Below are positions 3,158 to 55,400 of a DNA stretch of 57,620 bases, piece by piece. Location of the stretch: positions 1-57,620 of the IMG/VR virus record IMGVR_UViG_3300021508_000002; one strand, written 5' to 3'. Position numbers and translations under genes: made by a program. Each line of letters opens with the position of its first letter. The first letter of the stretch is position 1. The notes below the pieces were generated by a model. That model saw only the letters and a list, made by a program, of their open reading frames with translations. It had not been told where the DNA came from and searched no databases. This stretch comes from a virus (Duplodnaviria > Caudoviricetes).

Positions 3158-3192
3158 AAAATAAGCAAAGCAAGGATCTCTCCTCACTTTGT
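3158..3192 (-). terminator. Probable intrinsic terminator
   Basis: Minus strand ACAAAGTGAGGA-GAGA-TCCTTGCTTTGC followed by TTATTTT, just after the stop at 3201. Confidence 0.6.
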
Positions 3193-3200
3193 AAATTGTA

Positions 3201-3479
3201 TTAATAACTGTAATCAGCTGGTGTATGTTGAACGATTCTATAACGAGTATAGTCACCTTTCTCACCTTTTGCAGTTTCTTCTTGAAGAGCTAAGCTCTTT
3301 AATTCAGCTCCATGTTGCTCTAGATTATCAATAGTATCTTTAGCGATACTTACCATAGCTCTAGGCTCATTAATCCAATGGTTGTACCAATCTTTATTAA
3401 CAACTCCATCTGCATCTGTTGCAGCACGAAAATCTAATTGTTTGACACCTAACTCTTCTTTAATTTGTAAAATATTCAT
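3201..3479 (-). CDS. Hypothetical protein (92 aa)
   Basis: True start is probably the ATG at 3479 (MNILQIKEELGVKQLDF...), since the longer ORF reads through the upstream motif. Confidence 0.75.
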   Translation of the reverse strand: MNILQIKEELGVKQLDFRAATDADGVVNKDWYNHWINEPRAMVSIAKDTIDNLEQHGAELKSLALQEETAKGEKGDYTRYRIVQHTPADYSY

Positions 3480-3489
3480 CCTTTTATTA

Positions 3490-3536
3490 TTTAAATGTAA
3501 AATATAACTAGGACTAAGTAAGGGTAATGACCTAGA
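3490..3536 (-). promoter_or_regulatory. Conserved early-gene upstream motif, copy C
   Basis: Minus strand TCTAGGTCATTACCCTTA-CTT-AGTCCTAGTTATATTTTACATTTAAA. Confidence 0.7.
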
Positions 3537-3565
3537 CGTTTCTTTTGAGTAACACAAAGAAATGA

Positions 3566-3844
3566 CTAGCTAGTCATTTCTTTATATAGCAACAATTCTA
3601 ACACATTATCAGTATCTGTTATTTCTGCGAGCTCTAGATAGAACTCCGCATATTTAATTAGCAAATCAAGCCCACCGTAGATGCCACAAATCACTTCTAA
3701 TATGGCATAATCTATAGGTTTTATTCCTAATGACTCTGCAACAAAACGCTCTGCTATATCCTTTACTATAGAATCACTCTCTTTAACACCACCAAACTTG
3801 TTTATCATATCAATATACACATCTACTGATTCACTATTTTTCAT
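3566..3844 (-). CDS. Hypothetical protein (92 aa)
   Basis: ORF track; directly follows motif copy D. Confidence 0.7.
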   Translation of the reverse strand: MKNSESVDVYIDMINKFGGVKESDSIVKDIAERFVAESLGIKPIDYAILEVICGIYGGLDLLIKYAEFYLELAEITDTDNVLELLLYKEMTS

Positions 3845-3854
3845 AATCGCACAA

Positions 3855-3901
3855 TTTAAATTAAAAATATAACTAGAACTTAATAAGGGTAATGGTCAAG
3901 A
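3855..3901 (-). promoter_or_regulatory. Conserved early-gene upstream motif, copy D
   Basis: Minus strand TCTTGACCATTACCCTTA-TTA-AGTTCTAGTTATATTTTTAATTTAAA. Confidence 0.7.
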
Positions 3902-4067
3902 TAGTTATAAAGAAAGAAAGAAAAAAATTTCGATCATTTTCTTTAAAGATTGACCTGTCAGGAACGTAGCGACTGACAGAACAAAGGTTTGGAGAAAATG
4001 ACAAAGTTAGAGCAAATCCCCTTACTCTACCTAATAGGACTTATTTTATTGGTGTAATAAGAGAAGA

Positions 4068-4292
4068 TTAATCCTCTCTTATTATGTTTACCAATATGAT
4101 TATAATGCCTAATACTACACTGAATGCTAACAGTAACAATCCACTCTGTGTAGATTCTGTTATACTTAGCTTCCAATATGGAACTCTCAAGTTTACTCCA
4201 AGTGTAGTTAAAATGAATAAACCTGTTGATCCTAGAAGGATAGAACCTACGTACAGTTGTAAAATGTACTTACGTATTAATTTAATTATCAT
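4068..4292 (-). CDS. Small membrane protein, two TM helices
   Basis: Two long hydrophobic stretches; same orientation as the early block. Confidence 0.65.
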   Translation of the reverse strand: MIIKLIRKYILQLYVGSILLGSTGLFILTTLGVNLRVPYWKLSITESTQSGLLLLAFSVVLGIIIILVNIIRED

Positions 4293-4325
4293 GTCCGCTT
4301 AAATTTATGTTTTGTAGCAATAGTG

Positions 4326-4434
4326 CCGGGGGTGTTAGATACTAGGAATTTGTGGGGGTTATGGGGGAGGGAGGGTCATATATAAACAACCCTCTAATTT
4401 TTTAACAACCCTTAAATTTTTCATAAAAAATTTT
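4326..4434. other. G-rich non-coding element at the strand switch
   Basis: Five G-runs (4328-4375), then a 2x AACAACCCT..AATTTTT direct repeat and A/T tracts. Confidence 0.5.
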
Positions 4435-4650
4435 CTGAGGTCTTTTAATCCCATTAACTACAATTACTATAATAAACAAATTTCCAATTCTCCACAATAA
4501 CTTTTGTGCAATTAGTTCAATTAATGTGCAATAAAAGCCAGGCCCCTATAGCAGGAACCTGACGTTAGAGTAAAACCAAACTTGACCGCAAGATTTAAAC
4601 AAGTCTTAAATGTTATATTGTAAATATATTCAAAATTATTATATTATCAC

Positions 4651-4677: not shown

Positions 4678-5100
4678 ATGAAAGATATTGCAGTAGTGGG
4701 TAAATTAATAGAAAGGGGAAAAACAAAAACATGGGATAACAGATCCATAAGACATTTTATTCTCTCCTGTGGGGAGAAGGCTAATATGATGGAGTTTGCT
4801 ATTATGAGCCCTAAAGAGTTAAACAACTTCAAACCATTCAAAGAGGGGGATTTACTTAAAGTGATCTTTTCTATAAATACTGGACCTTATATAGATAAGG
4901 ACGGCAAAGATAGGTGCTACACCTTCTTAAAAGCCCTAAGTACTACTTTGGTACAACGGAAGGATTTAAATGTCATGAAGGTTACTTATAATGCTTCTAT
5001 GGAGAAGATTAAGAAGAGTTACAGTAAGGCCTATCAAAGTGAGCGATTAGAAAAGAGAGCAGATGAACTTTTAAACAAGAGTCCTCTAAGAAAGGTATAA
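4678..5100 (+). CDS. DUF3127-like OB-fold (SSB-like) protein
   Basis: Pattern V.GKLI...F.L....F......FKEGD..KV.FSI....Y..L.A resembles Bacteroidota DUF3127. Confidence 0.6.
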   Translation: MKDIAVVGKLIERGKTKTWDNRSIRHFILSCGEKANMMEFAIMSPKELNNFKPFKEGDLLKVIFSINTGPYIDKDGKDRCYTFLKALSTTLVQRKDLNVMKVTYNASMEKIKKSYSKAYQSERLEKRADELLNKSPLRKV

Positions 5101-5105
5101 TCTTT

Positions 5106-5137
5106 TTTGGTTATGACCACACATTACTTTACCTTTG
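5106..5137 (+). promoter_or_regulatory. Bacteroidota promoter (-33 TTTG / -7 TACCTTTG)
   Basis: TTTG at 5106-5109, 20-nt spacer, TACCTTTG at 5130-5137. Confidence 0.8.
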
Positions 5138-5141
5138 CCAA

Positions 5142-5470
5142 ATGATTACAAATAAAACAATATCTTCTTATGCGTCTGAGAACACGATTGGGGATTTATT
5201 GTGTAGTCAAGTTAAAAGACAATACAATGGGGGTTACACACTGTCAGAGTTACCGAAAGATACGACTCGTAACAGCCTACTAGAGCAGGTAAAAAAAGTT
5301 GATGCAATGGTGCAAGCTAGTACAGCACCGGAGAACTTCTCATTATAGCTGGTCTAAGGTAACCACTCCTTTAGGAATAAGGTTATCTTCTAAGACTGGT
5401 AAGAAGTTTCAGCGTCCCAACACCTTTTTTTTTAAAGATGGTGACTAGGGAACCTGTAACTTCTTTTTGA
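5142..5470 (+). ncRNA. Candidate structured non-coding RNA (~320 nt), overlapping a doubtful 68-aa ORF
   Basis: Own promoter plus at least 8 mutually compatible helices, several with G-U pairs (see findings). Confidence 0.45.
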
Positions 5471-5622
5471 AGGAAACAAAGACAGTAAAAGAAATAAAAA
5501 GAAATATAATAATAAATATAGATAATATTATTATATTTGTATATCCCTTATAGAATAGGCGAGTGGGCGAGCTAACCTGACACTCTGTTAACTAGTATTT
5601 TAATAATAAAAGAAGAATTAAT

Positions 5623-5653
5623 TTTGTTATATAGTTAATTTAAACTATATTTG
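5623..5653 (+). promoter_or_regulatory. Bacteroidota promoter of the tRNA operon
   Basis: TTTG at 5623-5626, 19-nt spacer, TATATTTG at 5646-5653. Confidence 0.8.
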
Positions 5654-5657
5654 CCTC

Positions 5658-5717
5658 ATGGTAATGAAACAACTACATTTGAATCAACCGAAACCGCTTA
5701 AACTATTTAAGGGATGA
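5658..5717 (+). CDS. Putative attenuator leader peptide MVMKQLHLNQPKPLKLFKG
   Basis: ATG 4 nt after the -7 box (second ATG at 5664). 8 of 19 codons are CNN: CAA CTA CAT CAA CCG CCG CTT CTA. Confidence 0.7.
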   Translation: MVMKQLHLNQPKPLKLFKG

Positions 5718-5744
5718 TTTAATATGTACCGGCAATACTGTTAA

Positions 5745-5773
5745 ACCCATTCCTACCGAATGGGTCTTTTTTT
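5745..5773 (+). terminator. Intrinsic terminator (attenuator) upstream of the tRNA cluster
   Basis: ACCCATTC-CTACC-GAATGGGT then C and T7, ending 11 nt before tRNA-Pro. Confidence 0.85.
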
Positions 5774-5784
5774 GTGTTATAAAT

Positions 5785-5862
5785 CTTGGTGTTAGGTGCA
5801 GATGGCTATACCCGCCCGACTTGGAATCGGGAGATCCGTTGGTTCGAATCCAACCACTGAGA
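5785..5862 (+). tRNA. tRNA-Pro(UGG)
   Basis: Acceptor CTTGGTG/CACTGAG with A73; anticodon arm CCCGA-CTTGGAA-TCGGG; T-arm GTTGG-TTCGAAT-CCAAC. Confidence 0.9.
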
Positions 5863-5938
5863 CGAAATAGTTTTGACCTTGCGTTCTAAAATGACGTCTT
5901 AAAAAACATGAGGTGACCTTCAGGGAGAGGCCTGACCA

Positions 5939-6010
5939 TGAAGTATGATGTAATTGGTAGCATACGAAACTTTGATTTTCGTTGTTTGGGTTCGAGTCCT
6001 GATACTTCAA
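5939..6010 (+). tRNA. tRNA-Gln(UUG)
   Basis: Acceptor TGAAGTA/TACTTCA; anticodon arm CGAAA-CTTTGAT-TTTCG; T-loop TTCGAGT. Confidence 0.9.
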
Positions 6011-6016
6011 CAAAAT

Positions 6017-6090
6017 GGTATCTTTAGTATAACCGGTTAGTACAATGGGTTGTGATCCCATAAGTTTGAGTTCAAGTCTCAATTGATACC
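6017..6090 (+). tRNA. tRNA-His(GUG)
   Basis: G-1/C73; anticodon arm ATGGG-TTGTGAT-CCCAT; T-arm TTGAG-TTCAAGT-CTCAA; two U-U pairs at the base of the acceptor stem. Confidence 0.85.
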
Positions 6091-6095
6091 CAAAT

Positions 6096-6177
6096 GCAGA
6101 AGTGTTGGAATTGGTAGACATTGCGGGTTTAGAACCCGTTGCTTAATAGCGTGCGAGTTCGAGTCTCGCCTTCTGTA
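6096..6177 (+). tRNA. tRNA-Leu(UAG)
   Basis: Acceptor GCAGAAG/CTTCTGT with A73; anticodon arm GCGGG-TTTAGAA-CCCGT; long variable arm; T-arm GCGAG-TTCGAGT-CTCGC. Confidence 0.92.
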
Positions 6178-6181
6178 CTTT

Positions 6182-6253
6182 ATTTTCATAGTTTAACTGG
6201 AAAAACATTGGGTTTCGACCCCAAAGATGTAGGTTCGAGTCCTACTGAAAATT
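6182..6253 (+). tRNA. tRNA-Arg(UCG)
   Basis: Acceptor ATTTTCA/TGAAAAT; anticodon arm TTGGG-TTTCGAC-CCCAA; T-arm GTAGG-TTCGAGT-CCTAC; A20 present; atypical U73. Confidence 0.82.
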
Positions 6254-6345
6254 TTATAGTATGTCTCCTATGACATTTTACCTAAAATCCTTTGATAAAC
6301 AAGTTAAATACTGTTATTTTGCAGTAAACATATAATAAAGATTAA

Positions 6346-6723
6346 ATGGAGGTTCTGAAGTATTCTAAGGTATTAAGTGGTGTTGAGTATTACATAGCAC
6401 ACTTAAATATTATAAACTCCATATTTGATGTAAAGCTATCCTCTAAGGAGATTAGTGTATTGTCTTCTTTTATGTCACAAGAGGAGTCCATAGTGCAGGG
6501 AGATAGATTCAATTCTTTTATAAGAAAGCGTGTGAGAGTAGCTCTATCTTTGTCTCCTGGTGGTTTGGGTAATTACTTAAACACTATGGTTAAGAAGGGA
6601 TTTTTAATACGTAATAGTATCACAGGGAACTTAACTATACAGAAATATCTATTTCCAAGTAGTGCGGGACAAGGATATCAATTTAAAATAATCCATAAAA
6701 GTAATGAGGATGGTGGAATATGA
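6346..6723 (+). CDS. Winged-HTH-like DNA-binding protein
   Basis: LSSKEISVL...RVALSLSPGGLGNYLNTMVKKGFLIR resembles a MarR-type wHTH. Confidence 0.55.
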   Translation: MEVLKYSKVLSGVEYYIAHLNIINSIFDVKLSSKEISVLSSFMSQEESIVQGDRFNSFIRKRVRVALSLSPGGLGNYLNTMVKKGFLIRNSITGNLTIQKYLFPSSAGQGYQFKIIHKSNEDGGI

Positions 6724-6877
6724 AAGATGCCCAAAATGTCATGGGGTGGGTAGAGATAATAAAGGATTCTCCAAAGGGTCTTTTGAGAATGGGGATTGTA
6801 TTAAGTGTTATGGAAAAGGGTATTTAGATGGAACGGAGTTATATTTCACAGAAAATGCTTCTAAAAGAATACTATAA
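6710..6877 (+). CDS. Small DnaJ-type zinc-finger protein (55 aa)
   Basis: Hand translation MVEYERCPKCHGVGRDNKGFSKGSFENGDCIKCYGKGYLDG... with two CxxCxGxG motifs. Confidence 0.7.
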   Translation: MVEYERCPKCHGVGRDNKGFSKGSFENGDCIKCYGKGYLDGTELYFTENASKRIL

Positions 6878-9528: not shown

Positions 9529-12500
9529 TTGGCAAAGAAAGTAGTAAAAGAGAAGAAACCGAGAAAGAAACGTATTGCACCTCTGAGGGGTTCTAACGGT
9601 GTTTGGTTGAACACCAAACCATTCAAAGAAGTTGGTGAGTATTTCATGAAGCATGGATACTATATTGCAGACCCTTGGGGATCTCCTGCATGGTATGATT
9701 TCTGGAAAAGGGAGCGAGATAGGTGTATGAATGGATATGCTATTTCTAAATATAAGATTACAGGAGATTACTATTTCTATCTCAACTATTGCCCTATACA
9801 GAAAGTAGACATAGAAAATGCTGTAGGTAAAAGAGCAAGTAAGATAAAGGGGTTTCCGGATTTTTGGGATGGGGACTATGAATACTTCTGGTTTAGAGAA
9901 ATAGCAAGAAATGGTATTTTAGAAGCCTTAAATGTACCATTAACAAAACAACAAGTTGTATATAATCTTCCTGAAGAAGAGAAGATTGAAATATATAAAA
10001 AACACTTAGATAGTTTGGGTCTAAAAATGAAGCCTGTACTTTCTAGTGTAAATTTAGAAGGTGGTAAAGATTTGATACTGGGGAAAGCTCGGCGTCGTGG
10101 CTTTAGTTATAAAAACAGTGCTGTTGTAGTCAACAATTATTTCACTAGACCAAACAAGTACAACCTTTTAATGGCTTATGAAAAAAAGTATTTGTACCCT
10201 GGCATAAAAACCATATTCGGAAAATGTCAATCTTATATAAACTTTATAAATGAATATACAGGGTGGCTAATGCCCTCTGATGTTATTGATAAACAAAGTC
10301 ACATAAAAGCATCTTACATAGAGTATAAGAATGGTAAGAAAATAGAGAAAGGGTTTCTTTCTGAAATAGAAGCTATTTCTTTTAAAGATAATCCTGATGC
10401 AGGTAGGGGGGCAGATACTTATGAAACAATTGGTGAAGAGGTTGGTGCTTGGGGAGTTCCAGGGGGGTTAAAAGCTACCATAGCTGCTATGCGGTCTTCT
10501 TCGGAAGCTGGTGGATTTAAAACAGGTATGATGACCCTCTTCGGATGTGTGTGTAAAGGTACTAAAGTTTATTTGCCTAATGGGGCTATTTGTAACATAG
10601 AGGATGTGCATGAATCTGTAGGTATAATAGGTTACACAGGGGGGGGTGTTATTTCTGAAAGGATTATTAATATAAATCCTATTATTAAAAAAGAATGCTA
10701 TAGAATAGAAACCACTAATGGAGATTTTATAGAGTGCAGTAATGACCACCCACTACTTTGGAGTTCTCCTAAATACAAAAAACCCGGGAAAGATGGGAAG
10801 AAAGTTACCTTTAAGAAAGCAGAAGACATACTTGTTGGAGACCAACTTATGTTACTTAGGCAAATACCTGTTTTTGGGAAAAAGAAAATGCCTTACGCAA
10901 GACTTATTGGTTTATTAATAGGTGATGGCTACTATGGCTCTATCAATGGTAGGACATCCACACCACAATTAGCCATTAATAATGAAGGTGTATTTGATTA
11001 TGTTAAATCAACCGGGTTGTTTTATAAAGTGTACAAAAACAAAGGTTCTTTCAATTACATAGGAATACACTCTTTCCAGGGCATATTGAAGGTCTTACAA
11101 ATAGATGGGCAAAGCAAGAAACAAAAAAGACTACCCAAAAAATTGTATGAATATGATTTACAGTCTATTGCAGATCTTTTGGGTGGATACTACGATGCTG
11201 TTGGGAATGTTAATTTAACAAAAAAGAAAAATAATAATGTTTCTATTGCTATAAGATTAACCTCCGTTGTGAGACCTTTACTTGAAGAAGTTCAAGAAGC
11301 ATTGAGGAGATTTGGGGTATTGTCTAGTATAATTAAAAGAAGACATAAGCCAGGGACTCTTCTTAAAAGTAGTATAACAGGTAATACTTCTGTCATAAAT
11401 ACGTTAATTTCATACTCTTTGGAAATAACAGATAGGGAATCTTTAAGGTCTTTCCAGAAACATATATCTTTCACCGATAGCTTAAAAAAGGAGAGATTAA
11501 AAAACTATTGTACAGATAGAAGTGATAATGAGCGTCAACTCAATAATTTTACATATGAAAAAACAGTAAAGGGTGAGTACTTTACAGACAAAAAACTAGA
11601 TGGGTTAACTTCAAGAAAGGTCTTAAATACAATAAAACTGGGGGAAAGAGATGTGTATAATTTAGGTACAGAAGAAACACACACTTATATCACCAATAAT
11701 TTTGTATCTCACAATACCTCTGGAAGTTTGGAAAAAGGTACTGCTGATTTTGCAGATTTATTCAACAGACCAGGTGCGAATAACTTCATGGAATTCTACG
11801 ATATTTGGGGAGAGCACCCTGAAAAAGTAGAGGGTTTCTTTTTTCCCAAACAGCTTAATACAGAAGGGTTTTATGACAAGAATGGTAACTCTGATTTTCA
11901 AGGGGCAGAGAACCAGGAAATGGGTGTTCGAAAGTCTTTAATAGAAAAGGGGGCAACTTCTACTGAGATTTTAAAAAGAATGCAGGAAGAGCCATTAAAT
12001 TCGGCAGAGGCCTTTTCAATGGTATCCCAAAATAATTTCCCTGTTGTAGAGATTAGACAACAACTAAATAAGTTAATAGCTAAGGGTTGGCAAAACACTA
12101 AAGGTACACCGGTAAAATTACACTATGTAGATGGTAAAATTACTGCAACACCAATCTTGAATGGGAAAGTTGAGCCCATAACATCTTTAAGAAATCTGCC
12201 ATTTGACTTAAGTGGTTGTCCTGTGATATATGAGGCTCCTATAAGTAAACCACCAAGAGGGTTGTACAAAATGGGATATGATCCTGTAAGACAAGACACT
12301 GGAACTTCTTTAGCAGCTATTGTGGTATATAAGTCTTTTCATGCAGGGTCTGTATACCACAGTACAATAGTGGCAGAGTATATAGGTAGGTATAAGACAC
12401 CAGAAGATATAGACAGAACAGCGGAGATGTTTGCAGATTTATTCAATACAACTATTATGTATGAGAATGAGGTGACAGGTACAAAGAATTACTTTCGCAG

Positions 12501-12891
12501 AATAAAGAGGTTGCACTTATTGGCTGTACAACCTGATGCGGTGATAAGTAAAAATGTGAAAACATCTCGTGTTGCTAGGGTTTATGGGTGTCATATGAAT
12601 GAGCAATTAAAAGATGCAGGAGAGAGGTATGTGAAAGAGTGGCTATTGACAGTTTTGGATCATGATGAGAATGGAAACAAGATACTGGTAATAGATAGGA
12701 TATATTCTAGGAGATTATTAGAGGAATTAATAAACTATACGAGAAAGGGTAACTATGATTTAATATCTTCTTTGTTTATGTGCATGTTTCAAGTTCAGGA
12801 AGAACAACTTGGTAAAGTGTATGGAGATGGTGAAGAAAATAAAAATGCCAAAAAATTACTAAATATGATTGAAAGGATGTATAGAAAATAG
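9529..12891 (+). CDS. terL: Terminase large subunit with intein
   Basis: Walker A-like GKARRRGFSY, Walker B TIGEEVG, coupling motif FG|TSG, nuclease motifs GYDPV and YENE..GNYD; directly upstream of the portal. Confidence 0.93.
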   Translation: MAKKVVKEKKPRKKRIAPLRGSNGVWLNTKPFKEVGEYFMKHGYYIADPWGSPAWYDFWKRERDRCMNGYAISKYKITGDYYFYLNYCPIQKVDIENAVGKRASKIKGFPDFWDGDYEYFWFREIARNGILEALNVPLTKQQVVYNLPEEEKIEIYKKHLDSLGLKMKPVLSSVNLEGGKDLILGKARRRGFSYKNSAVVVNNYFTRPNKYNLLMAYEKKYLYPGIKTIFGKCQSYINFINEYTGWLMPSDVIDKQSHIKASYIEYKNGKKIEKGFLSEIEAISFKDNPDAGRGADTYETIGEEVGAWGVPGGLKATIAAMRSSSEAGGFKTGMMTLFGCVCKGTKVYLPNGAICNIEDVHESVGIIGYTGGGVISERIININPIIKKECYRIETTNGDFIECSNDHPLLWSSPKYKKPGKDGKKVTFKKAEDILVGDQLMLLRQIPVFGKKKMPYARLIGLLIGDGYYGSINGRTSTPQLAINNEGVFDYVKSTGLFYKVYKNKGSFNYIGIHSFQGILKVLQIDGQSKKQKRLPKKLYEYDLQSIADLLGGYYDAVGNVNLTKKKNNNVSIAIRLTSVVRPLLEEVQEALRRFGVLSSIIKRRHKPGTLLKSSITGNTSVINTLISYSLEITDRESLRSFQKHISFTDSLKKERLKNYCTDRSDNERQLNNFTYEKTVKGEYFTDKKLDGLTSRKVLNTIKLGERDVYNLGTEETHTYITNNFVSHNTSGSLEKGTADFADLFNRPGANNFMEFYDIWGEHPEKVEGFFFPKQLNTEGFYDKNGNSDFQGAENQEMGVRKSLIEKGATSTEILKRMQEEPLNSAEAFSMVSQNNFPVVEIRQQLNKLIAKGWQNTKGTPVKLHYVDGKITATPILNGKVEPITSLRNLPFDLSGCPVIYEAPISKPPRGLYKMGYDPVRQDTGTSLAAIVVYKSFHAGSVYHSTIVAEYIGRYKTPEDIDRTAEMFADLFNTTIMYENEVTGTKNYFRRIKRLHLLAVQPDAVISKNVKTSRVARVYGCHMNEQLKDAGERYVKEWLLTVLDHDENGNKILVIDRIYSRRLLEELINYTRKGNYDLISSLFMCMFQVQEEQLGKVYGDGEENKNAKKLLNMIERMYRK
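10546..11715 (+). mobile_element. Intein (390 aa) with LAGLIDADG homing endonuclease
   Basis: C1 (CVCKGTKV), block B (IECSNDHPL), LIGLLIGDG and LLGGYYDAVG motifs, block F/G (VYNL...HTYITNNFVSHN), followed by Thr+1. Confidence 0.93.
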
Positions 12892-35713: not shown

Positions 35714-37033
35714 TTGAAACATAAAGTGATTACTTTAATGAAAAAAAATGCAGGTAGTTTACCTGAAAATGAGACTTGGTATGGTGTGGCAGTGTCTTGT
35801 GGAATTAGTCCTAGGAACAAAAAAAGGGCCTTAACAGATTCTAAATATAAAATTAAAAGTGTATCAAGGAAAGCACAAAGCTATTGGCAATCTTATTTAA
35901 AACAGGAGAATAGACTAAAATTACAAAAACAAGTTTTTAAAGATGGGAAGATTTTTGTAGAGACTTATACAAAACAACCAGAACCTGCTCCTGAAGTAAA
36001 TTTAGATGATTTTTTTGTAGAGAAAATGACCACAAATCCACATGGAGGTTCTTGGATGAAGTATAAGAGGAAAGAGAATTTCTATACAGAAGAGCACCTA
36101 GAATCCCTAAAAGAAGTTCTAATTAAGGAAATAGAACCCGTTAAGTTTAAAGAACCAAAAAAGAATAATAAAAAAGCTTTGTTTGTTTATGGATCAGATA
36201 AACATATAGGAGCTTTAACAAAGGAGGGGTCCATCTATACTAACAAGTATGATAGACAAGAAATAAAAAATAGGGTAGTTGTAGAAACTTTAAAACTTGT
36301 CTTAGATTCAGTAGATTTATACGGAACTTTTGAAGATCTCTATATAATGGATTTAGGAGATGCTTTAGATGGGTTTAATCAAAAGACAACAGGTGGTCTT
36401 AGGGGGCACTCTGCTCATACATTACCACAACAATTAAATAATAGAGAGCAACATGATTTTTATGTAGAGACACATAAGATTCTTTTTGACTCCTTAGTTA
36501 AATTTCAAGTTGCCAAGAATATATTTTTCGTAGCTACATCTAATTCTAACCATGGTGGGGATTTTGAGTATGGTGCTATGAGAAATTTAGAAACTTACTT
36601 GAATGTAAAGTATCCACAAATAAAAACATATATATCTTACAAATCCTATAATCACTTGATTTATGGAGAGCATGCTATTATTTTTGGCCATGGGAAAGAT
36701 GATGAAGATATGAGAAATGGTTTACCACTTGTATTGAACCCTAAAGTTGAGATGGTACTTTCCGACTATCTTAGGGTGAATGATTTGAATAAATACAATG
36801 TAACGTTTGTTAGTGGTGACTTGCACCAATCAGCAGAGACTTATGCTAAGAATTTCAGATATAAAAAAGTCTTGTCTCAATTTGGTAGTAGCAAGTGGGC
36901 ACATACAAATTTTGGGTCTGGTACTCCAGGGGTATCTTATGAGGTGTTCTTTAAAGAGAGTCCAGTTATAATAAAACAAGATAAGTTTTTCGATATAGGG
37001 AATCAGTCTAATACCGGCATAGAATTCTCCTAA
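35714..37033 (+). CDS. Calcineurin-like metallophosphoesterase
   Basis: SDKHIG, LGDALDG, SNHG, GHG and GDLHQ motifs. Confidence 0.85.
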   Translation: MKHKVITLMKKNAGSLPENETWYGVAVSCGISPRNKKRALTDSKYKIKSVSRKAQSYWQSYLKQENRLKLQKQVFKDGKIFVETYTKQPEPAPEVNLDDFFVEKMTTNPHGGSWMKYKRKENFYTEEHLESLKEVLIKEIEPVKFKEPKKNNKKALFVYGSDKHIGALTKEGSIYTNKYDRQEIKNRVVVETLKLVLDSVDLYGTFEDLYIMDLGDALDGFNQKTTGGLRGHSAHTLPQQLNNREQHDFYVETHKILFDSLVKFQVAKNIFFVATSNSNHGGDFEYGAMRNLETYLNVKYPQIKTYISYKSYNHLIYGEHAIIFGHGKDDEDMRNGLPLVLNPKVEMVLSDYLRVNDLNKYNVTFVSGDLHQSAETYAKNFRYKKVLSQFGSSKWAHTNFGSGTPGVSYEVFFKESPVIIKQDKFFDIGNQSNTGIEFS

Positions 37034-49485: not shown

Positions 49486-52400
49486 ATGGATGAAAAACAA
49501 TTAGCTTACCTGGAAGGGTTAGGGTATAAATACAGTGATGGTGCAATCACAGATAATAAAGGTAATTATGTTTCATCTGTGGCTTATGGGGATGGACAAA
49601 TTATATCTGCAATGCCTGATTATGTCTATAAGGAAAAGACAGAGTATGAAAACAGATTAAAAAACAAAGGTTTTAAAGAGGATTATAATTCAGAGATTCC
49701 AAGGACATCCCAAATCCAACAATTTGAAGCCTTCCATAAAGTAAAGGAGTTTGAAAAATCACCTGATAAAATAAACTTACCCAAAGATGGCGAAGAAGGT
49801 TCCGAACTTGTTGTAGAGGCCTTACAAAAGAGGGGGGAAGGGAAACCATCCTATACCAATGTTAAGGATTTTGAGGATACCAAACAGATGCAGTACACTG
49901 CTGAGACAGGTGATACTACTTTAGAGGTATTAGATAGAGTAGCTCCTGAAAACAAGGCAGAGTATAAGGACGTGCAGAACAGAATTTCTGAAATAATGAA
50001 AGAAGATCCTGACCAAAAAACATGGCATTTAAATGACCTAAAAAAAGAAGAGGGGGATGAAAACTTTTTAGAGGGTCTATATAGAGGTGGGTATAATGCA
50101 TTAACCAAGGTGGGAGCAGCTCTATCAAAGGATGGAAAGGGCATGAAAAACCCTGAACTACAAAAGGAGTATGCTGCATTGAGGAAACGTAGGAAGGGCT
50201 TAATAGAACCGGCACTGACAGCACAGACTAATATATTGAAAGAAGAGAGGGATTCTGTACTGAAAGAGCTAGAGGGTATGGACATAACTGAACAATATAA
50301 CTTCTCTCAAGATAGTGAACTTTTGATGAGGAGAAGAGATATATTAGAGAAGGCAATAACCTCTTCTGAAGCATCTTTGGAGGATGAATCTTTATTTAAT
50401 CCATTCAATTTAGACACTGGTGGTAGATTTACATCTTTTGGGTTAATCCCACTTTATAGGAGTTGGGACTTTAATAGGATAAAAGGTAAGCTTGAAAATG
50501 ATGAAGAACTAACTGATGCAGAAAAATCACTTGTAGAGACACAAGCTAGGGTAGATGAACTCCAAGGTATTAATTACAAAAAACCTTTTTCTTATGAGTT
50601 GGTAGAGGGGACTGTTGAATCTACACACTTCTTACAGGAATCTATGGGGGGTAGAAGAGTGGCAGCTAAACTATTAGCTAAACAACTTTTAAAGAAGGGT
50701 GCAGCAAAAATATTACCTAAAATAGCACAGATAGGGACTCAAACCATTTTACATCCACAAACATACAGTAAGGCTTTTGAAAGACATGCAGGTCAAATAA
50801 CAGTGACAGAAGGCGAGGATGGGAATCCTGTTTATGAGACGAATACTAGAACTTACAAAGCCACTAAAATAGCTGGAGAGAACGCTTTAAAAAATAATGA
50901 GGAATTATTAAGAGAAGAAAAAGATCCTAAAAAGGTTAAAGATTTAAAGCTACAAAGAGTAGAAATACAAAAATCCTTAGATTCCCTAAAAGAGCCTATG
51001 GACATGAAAAATAGTTTGATTTATGGGGCCTCTGATGTATTCAAAGAAGTTGTAATAGAAGATTACGCAAGGTATTTATACAAAAACCCATTAACTAAAA
51101 AACTTTTCTCTAATCCGCTGTTTGATAAGTTAAAAAGTAAACAATCAAATGGTTTATTTAAAGGTGGGTTAGATAAACTGAATAAGTATTTAGGTGGTGG
51201 AAGTACTATTGGGGGATTGGGTGAGGAAACTTTTGAGGAAGTGTTGGCTCAAGCGGTGCCGGAGTATGAAAGTAATAAACTAGAGCGTGCTAAACAGTGG
51301 GAAGAGTTAACTAACCCGGAGTTTTATGCTAAAGTAATGGGGCAAACTCTTTTGATGAGAGGTGCTTTAGGGGGCAGTACACAAGCCTACAGTAAACTGA
51401 CAGAGGGTAAGAGCTTACGAGATAAAAAGAAGTTTTTTAACAGCCTATATAAAGACTTAGACAATAGTGGGTTGTCACAAGAACAATTCAATACTATTTT
51501 TGCTAAAACAGGGGAGGGTAACCTGTCTGTAACAGAGTATAATAATGCTATTCAAAAAGAAAAGGATTCAGGGAATATAGATGCAGCTAATGAAATAGAG
51601 AGAAACAAGTATTTTAACATGGGCAAAACTGCCATAAGGTATGGTAAGGGGGATAAATTTATAAAGTCACTTGACCAAGCTGTTAAAAATACAAATTTAG
51701 ATGGCCACACAATATTAGCTATACAGAAAGCAAAAGAGGAAGTGAAGGATATACAGAATACCTTAAACGATTTACCTTCTTTACGTAATATGGATGAGGT
51801 TTTAGAATTGAAGTCTAAAATACGATACAATGAAAATAACACGGAAGAATTAAAGAAAGAAATAGATAAGATCTCGGAAAAGGACTTAAAGATTCCTGAA
51901 ATAAAAACCAAGAAGGAGTCTTTAGAAACACTAATTAAAGATTTGGAGACCTCTAATGCAAAATTAAATTCTGCTTTAATAAAATCCACTTCATACAAAG
52001 TCCAAAAAGAACTTCAAGCAGAGGACAACTTTATAAAGACAATTGACCAAGCCCTGAAGACTCTAAAGAGACAACCTAAGCTGCAAGACATAAAAACTAT
52101 TAGGGATACTGTTGGTGCGCAGTTTAAGGGTAAAATGAAGCCTGAAAACATTGAAGTTATACTAAAGCAGTATGAGCATAATATCAGTGTTTTAGACTCC
52201 TCTAAGAAAGAAAAGAAAGTAGAGGAGACCATAAAGTCTGTAAAAAAAGAAAATGCACCAAAAGAAACCATACCAGAGGTAAAGGAAAAGGGTGGGGAGT
52301 TAAAAGAGGATTTACCCGGAGAAAGAAGTTATGATGATGCAGCGGATAGATTCTTAGCTAGTTTAGTGCCACTTCATATAAACAAACAAAGTCCTGAAAA

Positions 52401-55400
52401 AAAAGTTGAGGAAAAAGATGATGATACAAATGTAGATGGTTCTCCAAAATCTAATGAACCGCCAGCATTTAGTTTTTTACTTGCTTCTGATGGTGGAGAA
52501 TATAACCAAGAAGATTTGAGTGAATCTTCTGATGCTATAAAAGAATTTTCAGAAGCTTACAAAAACATTAATGGAACCACTCCTAAGTTTAAAAATATAA
52601 TAGAGTCCTTTGTGGATAGAGTTGATGGAGAAGCACATCTACTAAAAGATCACTTTGAATCTATTGGATTAGCTTGGGAACAAGCTGGATTAGGTGAAAG
52701 TGGTTGGAAGAATTTATATAACACTTATTATAAGAATATAGACAACGCTGTAGATAAAGCTTTTGGTGCTCTAAAAATTAAAACTAAAGCAGAGACTATA
52801 GGGGAAGCTACAGCAAAAGTGGTAACTGAGGTACAAGCCGTAGAGAATACACTCTCTGAAAAATCAAAAGAATCTAGTGTACTTACAGATCCTGTAACAG
52901 GAGAGACAGTTAAGGCTACTCTAAATATTGGAAAGACTTCAACTGCTGACCATAAATTGAGATATTCTGCTATAGAGTATGAAATACAAAGGGAAGAAGT
53001 CGATGGTAAAACTATTACAACCTATCAGAACGAAGCTAAACCAAACCTCAGAAAACCTGATTATGTAGATATAAGGGACCTTGTTAACCCAAATAAAAAT
53101 AATCCTGGAGACAAGTTATCTGCAAACCTAACAGAATCCACTGATTGGGATGCAGTAAAAATAACCAAAAGAGACAAGTATGGAGTTCCTATTGGAACTG
53201 AACTATTTTCAGACTGGGTTACAGATAATAAGAAAGGGTTCAAATCTCTAGAGGACTTTTATGCATCTGACAAATTTATTTCAAAAGTCCCAATAGTGTA
53301 CAAAGATTCACAAGGAAATAAAGTCAGTTTTGTTCCTGATGTAGATTCGTACAACAATTTTAGTACATCGGATTTGAGTAAAGAGTTTGGTGATGAGGTT
53401 GATTTAAAAAACCCAACACCTATACAACTAGATTTAATAAAAGAAGGGAAAGAGAATTTATTGGGTCTTAGGAAATCTATCCTCAATGGGGATGTAGAGA
53501 GTGTCAGGATTGAAGATAATACTTCATTCAAATTCATCACAATACCTCACAAAACCAAAGATGGGAATGTTGTACCATTACCGTATTTATCTGAGGTTGC
53601 ACCAGGTTCCACTGTTGTTATAGCTAATAAGGATGGTACTTTACTAGGACTAGACAGTAAAGTTGTTAGTAAAGAAAATATTCTTGGTATAGAGAGTCTA
53701 ATACAATTTAAAGGAGAAAAACTCCCATCAGGGGAGGTAGTTCCAAGATTTACAAATACAGGAATACCATTATACCTCAGTCACACAACTGAGTTGGATG
53801 GTAAGAAAAAATATGTTGCGATAAAAGCAATGCAGTATAGTGAAGATAGTAAGCCAGTTGCTAGGACACAGGATATGACCACTGCTAAGTGGATTTCTGC
53901 TGCCCAAGAGATTTTAGCTTTAGGAGATAAGTCATCTGTACTACAAGATAAGAAGCATTTATACAACCTCTCTGTTGTAGAAGCTAAAAATATACAGAGA
54001 CAAGTGTTGGATGTTACAGGTTATGATATTAAAAACTCTAAGAGTTATTTCCAAGTACTAAAATCTTTAGTTGCTTTAAGGACAGAAACAGGTAAGAGTT
54101 TTGATCCCAAACAAACCACAAATGCATTGTTATCTAATTCAGTGTCTTTCGGAGGTAATATATCGATATCTTATAAAGGTAAGGGTGTAGCTGCTGTTAA
54201 GAGAAATGCAGAGGGTTCTATACAAGTGGATAAAATTGCAGACAGTTATGAAGATTACCTTAAAAACACTTTGTCAACTAATGTTATGGGCTATAATGTT
54301 GGAACTAAGGAGAATCCGATATTTACCCCAGCCGTGCAACAGAATATTCTAGTACAACCTCTTATAAAAGACCCTACTAAACTTTTCAAGAAAAAAGAAG
54401 AAACAGGGGTTGTAAAAAATAGAGAAGGGGAAGCTCCTATATTAGGAGACACTTTATCCTTTTTAGAAGATCTAAAGATAGAGGTTGCTGATTACTTGAT
54501 AGAGGTGAATAATCAGCTCGCACCTGACCTGTCTGATACAAAATCCCTAGAAAGCTCCTCTAAAATGGTGGAAGGGTTTACCATAAGACAACAATTAGAC
54601 ATAAGAGATTTTACAGTTTCTTTAATAGCTAAAAACTCTAATAAGGAAGAGGTACAAAATAAATATAATGAATTTTATGTAAGTAGGAAAAATCTCATTT
54701 CTAATCATGTGAAGAGTTTAGGGTTAAAGATTGAAACTATAGAAGATGCAGAGACATTAAATAAAGCAAATAAAATACTAAAAGGGTTATCTTCTGAGGT
54801 ATTTAAAATTGACACTATAATAGAGAGTTTTGATAAAGTGTTTCATGAAGCTGCTGATACTGCTAGTAAGTTCACTAAAATAGAAGACGAATTCACGAAG
54901 GATTTCAGTACTATAATAGAGGGTAAAAACTATGCCAAAGAGGGTTGGGAAGAAAGTCCAATCAGCAAGGTTGGACCAATTGTAAAGAGGGTGTTTGCCA
55001 AAGTTAGTAATGGGGATACTGGATTATATGGTGTCCCAAGATATAGTCCTTTTAAAACCATGTTTGATTCTGTAATGGAAATTGTTGCAGGGGACACTCA
55101 TAAATCTCCATCCTTTAATGTAATGATGGATAAGCTAAAGTTATATCAAAAATCATTACCCTGGGTCAACCCTCTCATAAAAGAATTGGAGGATACAGAT
55201 AGGCAGGCTAAAAATCAATTTGTTGTTAATTTTTATAAAGAGAAAGTTAATCCTGTGTTTATTGCAGTTACTAAAAAAGGAAAAGACATTGAAACCAAAA
55301 TCTTTGAGAGTAACTCGAATGCACCTAAGAGGGTTTTGCTAGAGGGTTGGGAAAGTAATTTCAACAGGATTAAAAGTAAATCAGCAAGCTATAAAAGAGC

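Follow-up and report, generated by a model that had tools for sequence, protein, structure and literature searches.

A mobile phage cassette of five A37-bearing tRNA genes for C-starting codons, with a candidate leader-peptide attenuator

Why would a phage carry one transfer RNA (tRNA) for each of the five amino acids whose codons start with C (CNN codons)? The question is raised by positions 5785–6253 of the IMG/VR virus record IMGVR_UViG_3300021508_000002 (Duplodnaviria; Caudoviricetes), where tRNA genes for Pro, Gln, His, Leu and Arg follow each other on one strand. The whole stretch of 57,620 nucleotides (nt), referred to here as the window, is the complete record, which is classed as linear and has an estimated completeness of 62%. 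The original prediction, made from the sequence alone, was that all five tRNAs have G36 followed by A37 and that the set replaces the host tRNAs that depend on 1-methylguanosine at position 37 (m1G37), the modification that TrmD makes on tRNAs with G36-G37. The reading that we favor, at a probability of roughly 0.55, is that the five genes form a single mobile CNN-tRNA cassette under a leader-peptide attenuator, so that the supply of these tRNAs would be controlled by demand and would be independent of m1G37 capacity. The leader mini-open reading frame (mini-ORF), the terminator and the mobility of the cassette had no place in the original prediction and are added here.

A mobile array of five tRNA genes

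The transcription unit would comprise, in order, a Bacteroidetes-type promoter, a leaderless mini-ORF, an intrinsic terminator and the five tRNAs. Its features are as follows; bit scores are from Infernal with the Rfam tRNA model, and loop sequences are those of positions 32–38.

5623–5626, plus strand: −33-like TTTG, from a script search for the Bacteroidetes promoter consensus
5646–5653, plus strand: −7 box TATATTTG, a match to the consensus, 4 nt before the ATG of the mini-ORF
5658–5717, plus strand: leader mini-ORF, 19 codons and a stop, with 8 CNN codons (Gln, Leu, His, Pro) and no Arg codon
5710–5716, plus strand: candidate antiterminator segment, overlapping the stop codon of the mini-ORF and complementary to 5748–5754
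5745–5773, plus strand: predicted intrinsic terminator, with a stem of 8 base pairs (bp) (5745–5752/5758–5765), a 5-nt loop and a run of seven T (5767–5773)
5785–5863, plus strand: tRNA-Pro(UGG), ARAGORN; G36-A37; loop cttggaa; atypical, 79 nt with an enlarged D-arm
5864–5938, plus strand: spacer of 75 nt between Pro and Gln, where relatives have tRNA-Glu, or tRNA-Asp plus tRNA-Met
5939–6011, plus strand: tRNA-Gln(UUG), ARAGORN, 55.4 bits; G36-A37; loop ctttgat
6018–6091, plus strand: tRNA-His(GUG), ARAGORN, 52.8 bits; G36-A37; loop ttgtgat
6096–6178, plus strand: tRNA-Leu(UAG), ARAGORN, 47.9 bits; G36-A37; loop tttagaa
6182–6253, plus strand: tRNA-Arg(UCG), ARAGORN, 68.9 bits; G36-A37; loop tttcgac

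ARAGORN identifies exactly five tRNA genes in the 57,620 bases, and its loops agree with those first described, one tRNA per CNN amino acid and all with G36-A37. The further claim that the window has no other tRNA also holds on this whole-window search, the rest of a genome that the record covers to about 62% being unseen. Four of the five genes score above the Rfam gathering cut-off of 29 bits, with values of 47.9–68.9. The tRNA-Pro, at 27.9 bits, is under the cut-off and argues against a set of five standard tRNAs. The same 79-nt form is present in a second contig (locus L368), with 92% identity over 62 nt, and both strands of the acceptor stem differ between the two sequences in such a way that pairing is kept. 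Because of these changes we take the gene as real, and it probably encodes a genuine, if atypical, tRNA. In L368 the tRNA-Pro is followed by tRNA-like sequences for which ARAGORN makes no call.

The window array can be aligned with that of Cellulophaga phage phi19:1 from Pro to Arg, spacers included, and this array, at 71.5% identity, is the sole DNA-level relative of the window among 50,697 phage records; a megablast of positions 6300–31000 against the same records gave no match. Phi19:1 is a siphovirus of the HK97 type that encodes a tape-measure protein, and its complete circular genome carries these five kinds of tRNA and no others. By tblastn, the only genuine protein that the two phages share is an SbcD-like exonuclease (window 35714–37033, phi19:1 3164–4465; 28% identity over 289 amino acids, E 1e-27), which is SbcD/Mre11-like by PHROGs (phrog_284/704) and has no sequence match in the PDB. 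This exonuclease was considered as a co-transferred partner of the cassette and was set aside, being not obviously linked to tRNA.

Scans of IMG/VR and metagenome loci with a 17-nt Pro anticodon arm and a His arm revealed the cassette in about 20 low-GC contigs besides the window and phi19:1. Exactly five CNN tRNAs in the same order are found in eight records (the window, phi19:1, L363, L365, L408, L428, L506 and L541), which we take to be one evolutionary origin that has been kept and not eight events. With this recurrence the pattern exceeds what chance would give. The other relatives vary in content: tRNA-Glu is added in L366, L373, L402, L406 and L537, tRNA-Leu(UAA) in L364/L371 and L366, tRNA-Asp plus tRNA-Met in L417, and tRNA-Asn and tRNA-Phe in L366, and the cassettes of L422/L425 are without tRNA-Arg. 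The presence of these six non-CNN kinds speaks against the original view of a CNN-only set. L402 and L406 have two divergent operons, one made up of the five G36 tRNAs and Glu and the other of the remaining 15–16 tRNAs; in L402 the latter also has a leader and a terminator of its own. By hand arithmetic, the chance that all five G36 tRNAs out of 22 fall into a six-gene operon is ~2e-4. All 88 calls of G36 tRNAs in 20 cassette loci, several of which are near-identical, have A37. The array is a phage tRNA cassette that moves horizontally, with about 70% identity retained between phages whose backbones are unrelated.

The tRNA counts per cassette are lower bounds, since ARAGORN makes no call for two kinds of cassette member: in L364/L371 and L373 a gene resembling tRNA-Leu(UAG), whose D-arm is unusual and which is seen in the alignment, and in L411 and L422/L425 one resembling tRNA-Pro(UGG), whose D-arm is shortened. 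The individual genes of the window differ in several respects from their counterparts. Its tRNA-Leu(UAG) is a class II molecule of 83 nt with a long variable arm, and the alignment with phi19:1 has an 8-nt gap in this gene; in phi19:1 (L001 1658–1732), L363, L365 and L366 the gene is 74–75 nt long and lacks the long variable arm. The tRNA-Arg has a UCG anticodon in the window and ACG in most cassette relatives. On direct reading of the sequence, the tRNA-His has an encoded G at −1 (position 6017) that faces C73, and none of the five genes encodes CCA. In the spacer between Pro and Gln, an Rfam search over 5000–6800 gave no tRNA match at E ≤ 10; this segment may be a decayed tRNA.

A leader that resembles an attenuator

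The promoter consensus of Bacteroides and Flavobacterium is TTTG, about 19 nt, and TAnnTTTG. We take the elements at 5623–5626 and 5646–5653 to be a putative promoter of this Bacteroidetes type, and a sigma-70-type scan places a promoter-like site at 5624–5651. A −7-type box is found 4–5 nt before the ATG in the aligned cassettes, with one mismatch to the motif in phi19:1 and L365. Because the −7 box of the window is only 4 nt before the ATG, its position implies a leader mRNA that is leaderless or nearly so. Homologous mini-ORFs occur at the same place in 14 other loci, and the layout is shared: the box, 4–5 nt, the ATG, 18–30 codons, and 55–67 nt from the stop codon to tRNA-Pro that contain a GC-rich hairpin and a T-run, the latter stopping a few bases short of the tRNA. 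The terminator of the window ends 11 nt ahead of tRNA-Pro, which leaves no space for another promoter, so that the tRNAs would be transcribed only by read-through of the terminator. No credible Rfam match, and no T-box, was found in the leader (E ≤ 10, positions 5000–6800).

Of the two pairings that an attenuator needs, the terminator stem has strong support from compensatory change and the antiterminator moderate support. In an alignment of 15 leaders, 87.4% of the cells of the terminator stem are paired and 14 cells are changed on both sides, and none of 500 shuffles was as good. The antiterminator duplex of the window has a calculated energy of −9.3 kcal/mol versus a shuffle mean of −4.6 (RNAduplex, p = 0.029), and the duplex beats 2000 shuffles in each of seven cassettes (p 0.006–0.048, Stouffer z −6.4). 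When the 15 leaders are read in one fixed register, 77.8% of the antiterminator cells pair, a value matched by 3 of 500 shuffles. By eye, the alignment shows L406 and L408 to differ in one base of the leader segment, with corresponding differences in both arms of the terminator. When the leaders of the window and of several relatives are folded to minimum energy, the segment with the codon run pairs with the antiterminator segment.

In leader-peptide attenuation, slow decoding of reporter codons leads to read-through. We infer that the mini-ORF is translated, that the two pairings form a switch, and that regulation has the same direction here. When CNN codons are decoded rapidly, the ribosome would cover the antiterminator segment where the mini-ORF ends, the terminator would fold and little tRNA would be made. 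When decoding is slow, the ribosome would stall within the CNN run and the downstream segment could pair with the 5′ arm of the terminator, allowing read-through into the tRNA genes. The cassette would then provide a demand-controlled, or self-limiting, supply of decoders for codons that start with C.

The codons of the leaders vary with the tRNAs that follow. The mini-ORFs contain a run of His, Leu, Gln and Pro codons, mostly with Arg codons as well; in L365 six codons of these kinds are consecutive. A Glu codon is present within the CNN run only in the cassettes with tRNA-Glu (L366, L373, L402, L406 and L537), and an Asp codon within the run in L417, which carries tRNA-Asp. TTA codons occur in leaders where tRNA-Leu(UAA) is present, and the leaders of L422/L425 have no Arg codon, just as these cassettes have no tRNA-Arg. 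Other types of operon behave similarly. In the leader of the second operon of L402, 22 of 23 residues are among the 15 amino acids of that operon, and the residues that match their own cargo number 18 of 32 for a Pro/Ala/Thr/Gly/Val operon, 14 of 22 for Pro/Glu/His/Ile and 7 of 17 for Tyr/Met/Thr. Three operons (L450, L479 and L460) are dispersed, with ORFs between the tRNAs. Enrichment of the operon's own amino acids is found in five of six operon types (each p < 0.05; Fisher combined 3.5e-10, with the amino acids of the window as background). In an automated comparison of 21 unique leaders, the match to the leader's own operon was 0.340 as compared with 0.267 (standard deviation 0.017) on permutation, and none of 20,000 permutations was as high; independence is overstated by the permutation p-value and by the Fisher one, leaders and cassettes having a common ancestry, and the six operon types were selected after being seen.

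That shared ancestry and selection weigh against the attenuator, and so do several further observations. The window and L363 have a tRNA-Arg without an Arg codon in the leader, and the leaders of L408/L428 have an Asp codon without a tRNA-Asp. In its share of CNN codons the window leader is 16th of 369 mini-ORFs of the window (top 4%), its RNA folds only modestly better than shuffles (z −1.38), and the terminator forms in most states of simple masked folds. The antiterminator helix has 6–7 bp between a purine-rich and a pyrimidine-rich segment, and 46–69% of cells pair in slid registers. Under a strict rule, such a leader precedes 26 of 444 tRNA blocks and most blocks show none. In L368, a contig of 13,200 nt, the tRNA-Pro (4394–4472, minus strand) is directly behind a box of the TAnnTTTG type with no mini-ORF and no terminator.

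A leader that is not extreme by itself and a terminator that forms in most folds would also fit a historical accident, in which an ancestral cassette of five A37 tRNAs spread as a unit and the mini-ORF and hairpin represent a small gene or a leaky terminator. Common descent could account for both the set and A37, perhaps through AT mutation pressure, the phage and the cassette being AT-rich. We regard this as quite unlikely, because the leader content shifts with the tRNA content and neutral inheritance cannot explain such co-variation. The spacing from box to ATG, stop and tRNA is conserved, and compensatory changes keep the terminator paired. The identity that the cassette retains across unrelated backbones and the A37 in every call also argue against accident, as does the distance among the five tRNAs, for which an origin by recent duplication was excluded, since their mutual identity of 54–66% is at background level. 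The attenuator remains our favored reading of the leader. It says that the need for the tRNAs is conditional and not what causes the need.

Position 37 and the need for the set

The host of phi19:1 is Cellulophaga baltica, and this, with the Bacteroidetes-type promoter box, points to a member of the Flavobacteriaceae or a near relative as the host of the window phage. The host data below come from genomes of that family, reached by a 16S probe scan, and are proxies and not data on the host of this record, which weakens any argument based on them. Flagellimonas sp. W118 (G003) has 39 tRNA genes, with G37 in all eight G36 tRNAs (Arg acg, Arg tcg, Gln, His, Leu gag, Leu tag, Pro ggg and Pro tgg) and A37 in all 31 others; each of its CNN tRNAs is single-copy. 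Searches for G37-form patterns in 41–61 Flavobacteriaceae genomes, with counts made by hand from the matches, agree: among the matches listed, G37 was found in Pro(UGG) of 31 of 35 genomes and Gln(UUG) of 20 of 35; it was found in His(GUG) of 25 of 41 genomes and, in a noisy search, in Leu(UAG) of at least five genomes among 150 of 369 matches. The prediction that host orthologues would have G37 is thus borne out in the proxies. TrmD (PF01746) is present in all five Flavobacteriaceae genomes tested and was not found in the window. With G36-G37 orthologues throughout, the C-row of the code in this family would be read by the TrmD substrate class.

In contrast to the eight G36 tRNAs of G003, all five window tRNAs lack the G36-G37 feature of a TrmD substrate. 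Position 37 differs from the G003 orthologue in all five and position 32 in three, and with A37 the cassette tRNAs are neither open to methylation by TrmD nor dependent on it. An origin by recent capture of host genes was excluded, since identity to the G003 orthologues is 55–73%, near the level of unrelated tRNAs.

The significance of A37 is reduced by its frequency in other phages. We called 914 tRNAs in 117 IMG/VR loci that had been selected with a Pro/T-loop pattern and are therefore a biased sample; A37 was present in 104 of 240 unique G36 tRNAs. Its share was 18/88 in Pro, 19/35 in Leu(UAG), 25/44 in Gln(UUG), 13/27 in His, 16/18 in Arg(ACG) and 5/5 in Arg(UCG), and in several IMG/VR arrays of ~20 tRNAs every G36 member has A37. 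A37 is therefore a common trait of phage G36 tRNAs and is no mark of a CNN-only set, which goes part of the way toward the default that the original prediction had named as evidence against itself. Two Flavobacteriaceae genomes contain phage-type arrays, of 12 tRNAs in L556 (G030:C14:30001–48000) and 16 in L557 (G029:C1:990001–1008000), in which all G36 tRNAs have A37, in contrast to those on chromosomes of the family. Upstream of them we saw no cassette-type leader, and these arrays are probably prophages or other mobile elements. A literature search gave no paper noting A37 in phage G36 tRNAs, and the available part of the main text of van den Berg et al. (PMC10264068) has no mention of position 37, m1G or TrmD.

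One cause of a conditional need could be a shortage of TrmD capacity or a failure of m1G37, in which the G36-G37 class of the host becomes limiting as a whole and the A37 copies, being independent of the enzyme, bypass it. The attenuator could serve as the sensor. Possible triggers are incomplete methylation when infections are long, stress, or a burst of tRNA synthesis that saturates TrmD. This explanation fits the strict association of G36 with G37 in the host family (8/8 in G003) and the presence of TrmD, together with the A37 of every cassette G36 tRNA and the grouping of these tRNAs into one operon in L402 and L406. Leaders of the Pro-Gln-His cassette family use CCG as their Pro codon, for which tRNA-Pro(UGG) would be the only decoder in G003. 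In trmD-deficient Escherichia coli the supply of tRNA-Pro and tRNA-Arg is limiting, and such strains evolve extra genes for an A37-derived tRNA-Arg(CCG) described as "unaffected by m1G37 deficiency" (Clifton et al. 2021, Nucleic Acids Research, PMC8643618). However, A37 is widespread in phage G36 tRNAs from arrays of any make-up, tRNAs for Glu, Asp, Met, Leu(UAA), Asn or Phe are found in relatives of the cassette, and other leader-controlled operons have different sets, such as Pro/Ala/Thr/Gly/Val or Pro/Glu/His/Ile. Because mature host tRNAs are stable, reduced methylation would have an effect only if the infection is long. We see the bypass as possible and, on balance, doubtful.

The original claim that the set stands in for the m1G37 class of the host accordingly survives in part: G37 in the host family and the presence of TrmD in all five genomes tested favor it, and the frequency of A37 in phages and the non-CNN tRNAs of relatives do not. 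Its pointers to specific causes, namely a nuclease, loss of TrmD, depletion of S-adenosylmethionine (SAM) or a disabling phage factor, found nothing to attach to among the 48 window ORFs, host defense genes being unsearched. Pfam and PHROGs searches of these ORFs, most of which had no match and are unannotated, recognized no tRNA-modifying, RNA-ligase, nuclease-toxin or SAM-degrading family and no TrmD-directed gene.

An alternative that is likewise compatible with the attenuator is evasion of a defense: an anticodon nuclease or modifier, of the host or of a competitor, would read G36-(m1)G37, and the A37 copies would escape it and replace the class. A conditional sensor would suit a threat that is not always present, and the differences from the host orthologues at positions 37 and 32 are of the expected kind. 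Rescue by tRNAs from the PARIS and retron defenses has reportedly been observed. We know of no nuclease with specificity for the whole G36-G37 class, and a literature search gave none; the non-CNN members of the relatives and the other types of leader operon would also be left unexplained. We therefore consider this explanation unlikely, even though phage tRNAs are predicted to resist VapC, PrrC and colicins D and E5 through changes in the anticodon loop (PMC10264068).

The most widely accepted explanation for phage tRNAs, as stated in the same study (PMC10264068), is compensation for codon usage, in which the tRNAs boost codons that the phage uses more than its host. The single-copy CNN tRNAs of G003 would leave room for this. 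The original prediction had judged the fit poor because an AT-rich phage should favor tRNAs for A/T-starting codons; codon counts provide a better reason. CNN codons number 117 per 1000 in the window and 96 in phi19:1 as compared with 120–130 in three low-GC Flavobacteriaceae proxies (~20,000 codons sampled per genome), and the codons read by the phage tRNAs are not used more by the phage than by these proxies. The log2 phage/host ratios of CCA, CAA and CTA are within ~0.35 of zero, CAT is depleted (−0.52/−0.78), and CGN codons, at 60 of 16,499, are depleted ~4-fold (CGA −1.97, CGT −1.93). For the codons that the phage does enrich (AGG, GGG, GAG, AAG and ATA) it has no tRNA. Compensation is very unlikely on these proxies.

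The phage, related systems and implications

The window has a GC content of ~34% and encodes a major capsid protein of the crAss type (PF23898, 4e-154) and crAss tail-ring proteins, together with an M15 peptidase and a very large virion-protein homologue. Pfam matches among the 48 ORFs are to structural, lysis or intein families, and no replication genes were recognized with Pfam and PHROGs, most ORFs having no match. A frame of 2711 codons (49486–57618) is open to the 3′ end of the record. This frame, the completeness of 62% and the lack of recognized replication genes together suggest that a larger crAss-like genome is only partly represented by the record. Positions 1–450 consist of a 12-nt tandem repeat (37.5 copies, 81% matches); if the record is closed into a circle, the giant frame continues without a stop through this repeat, probably by chance in a 12-nt period. 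The repeat may mark a genome end or an assembly break. An ORF of 1120 amino acids (9529–12891) has a LAGLIDADG domain (9.9e-14) and an intein-splicing match of 34.5 bits, just below the Pfam cut-off of 35.8, both of which suggest that an intein interrupts a large protein, probably one involved in packaging. Genes for transfer-messenger RNA are present in distant relatives of this phage (L182, L189 and L208), and L209–L211 have a 70-nt tRNA-like gene to which ARAGORN assigns a two-base anticodon. The cassette is present in none of the 61 loci of relatives found via the phrog_16390 protein.

In its parts the proposed leader resembles the trp, his, phe, leu, ilv and pheST attenuators, with a promoter, a short ORF of reporter codons, an intrinsic terminator and candidate alternative pairings. 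It differs from the attenuators of amino-acid operons in that it controls tRNAs and not enzymes or synthetases, in that the leader lists several amino acids that mirror the cargo and not a run of one residue, and in that the mRNA is apparently leaderless and the element phage-borne and mobile. T-box riboswitches likewise sense the state of tRNA through a choice between terminator and antiterminator, but they bind uncharged tRNA directly and control synthetase or amino-acid genes. A literature search gave no description of leader-peptide attenuation of tRNA genes. The argX-hisR-leuT-proM operon of E. coli is a precedent for co-transcription of CNN tRNAs only (Arg, His, Leu and Pro); it is bacterial, three of its four tRNAs have G37 and, to our knowledge, it has no leader peptide.

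With respect to the tRNAs themselves, the cassette can be compared with three published cases. Like the phage tRNAs with altered loops that are proposed to sustain translation under tRNA attack (van den Berg et al. 2023, eLife, PMC10264068), the cassette tRNAs depart from the host in the anticodon loop; unlike these and the PARIS and retron cases, which involve single tRNAs and named nucleases, they cover a whole codon row, share the G37-to-A37 change and have no known nuclease. The suppressors of trmD deficiency (PMC8643618) are also extra G36 tRNAs with A37, but they arose by laboratory evolution in a bacterium and concern one tRNA species, whereas the cassette is natural, phage-borne and has five. 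Ordinary phage arrays (Bailly-Bechet et al. 2007, via PMC10264068) are similar in having compact tRNA genes in a virulent-type phage. Unlike those that compensate for codon usage, the cassette fails the codon-usage test, is confined to one row of the code and has a sensor-like leader of its own.

The locus carries what looks like a new use of a known regulatory principle. If the favored reading is true, it would be the first known leader-peptide attenuator of tRNA genes, as far as our literature search reaches. Why phages carry tRNAs has been argued for decades, and this cassette seems to carry its own read-out of need: a sensor peptide that mirrors the cargo would name the decoding steps that are limiting in infected cells, and would make it possible to predict from the genome, by a simple rule, the signal to which a given phage tRNA operon responds. 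The systematic G37-to-A37 difference links phage tRNAs with TrmD, which is an essential enzyme and a target for antibiotics, and the bypass idea could be tested with a culturable pair, Cellulophaga baltica and phage phi19:1.

A broader proposal, which we put forward tentatively and consider improbable as a whole, is that phages of Bacteroidota have portable, self-regulating tRNA modules with a leaderless "checklist" peptide, and that the CNN module is an A37 back-up of the host G36-m1G37 class. Such a peptide would list the downstream tRNAs, gauge decoding codon by codon and open the attenuator on failure. If this is true, class-wide failure of m1G37-dependent decoding, whether through defense, stress or phage action, would be a recurrent event in these infections.

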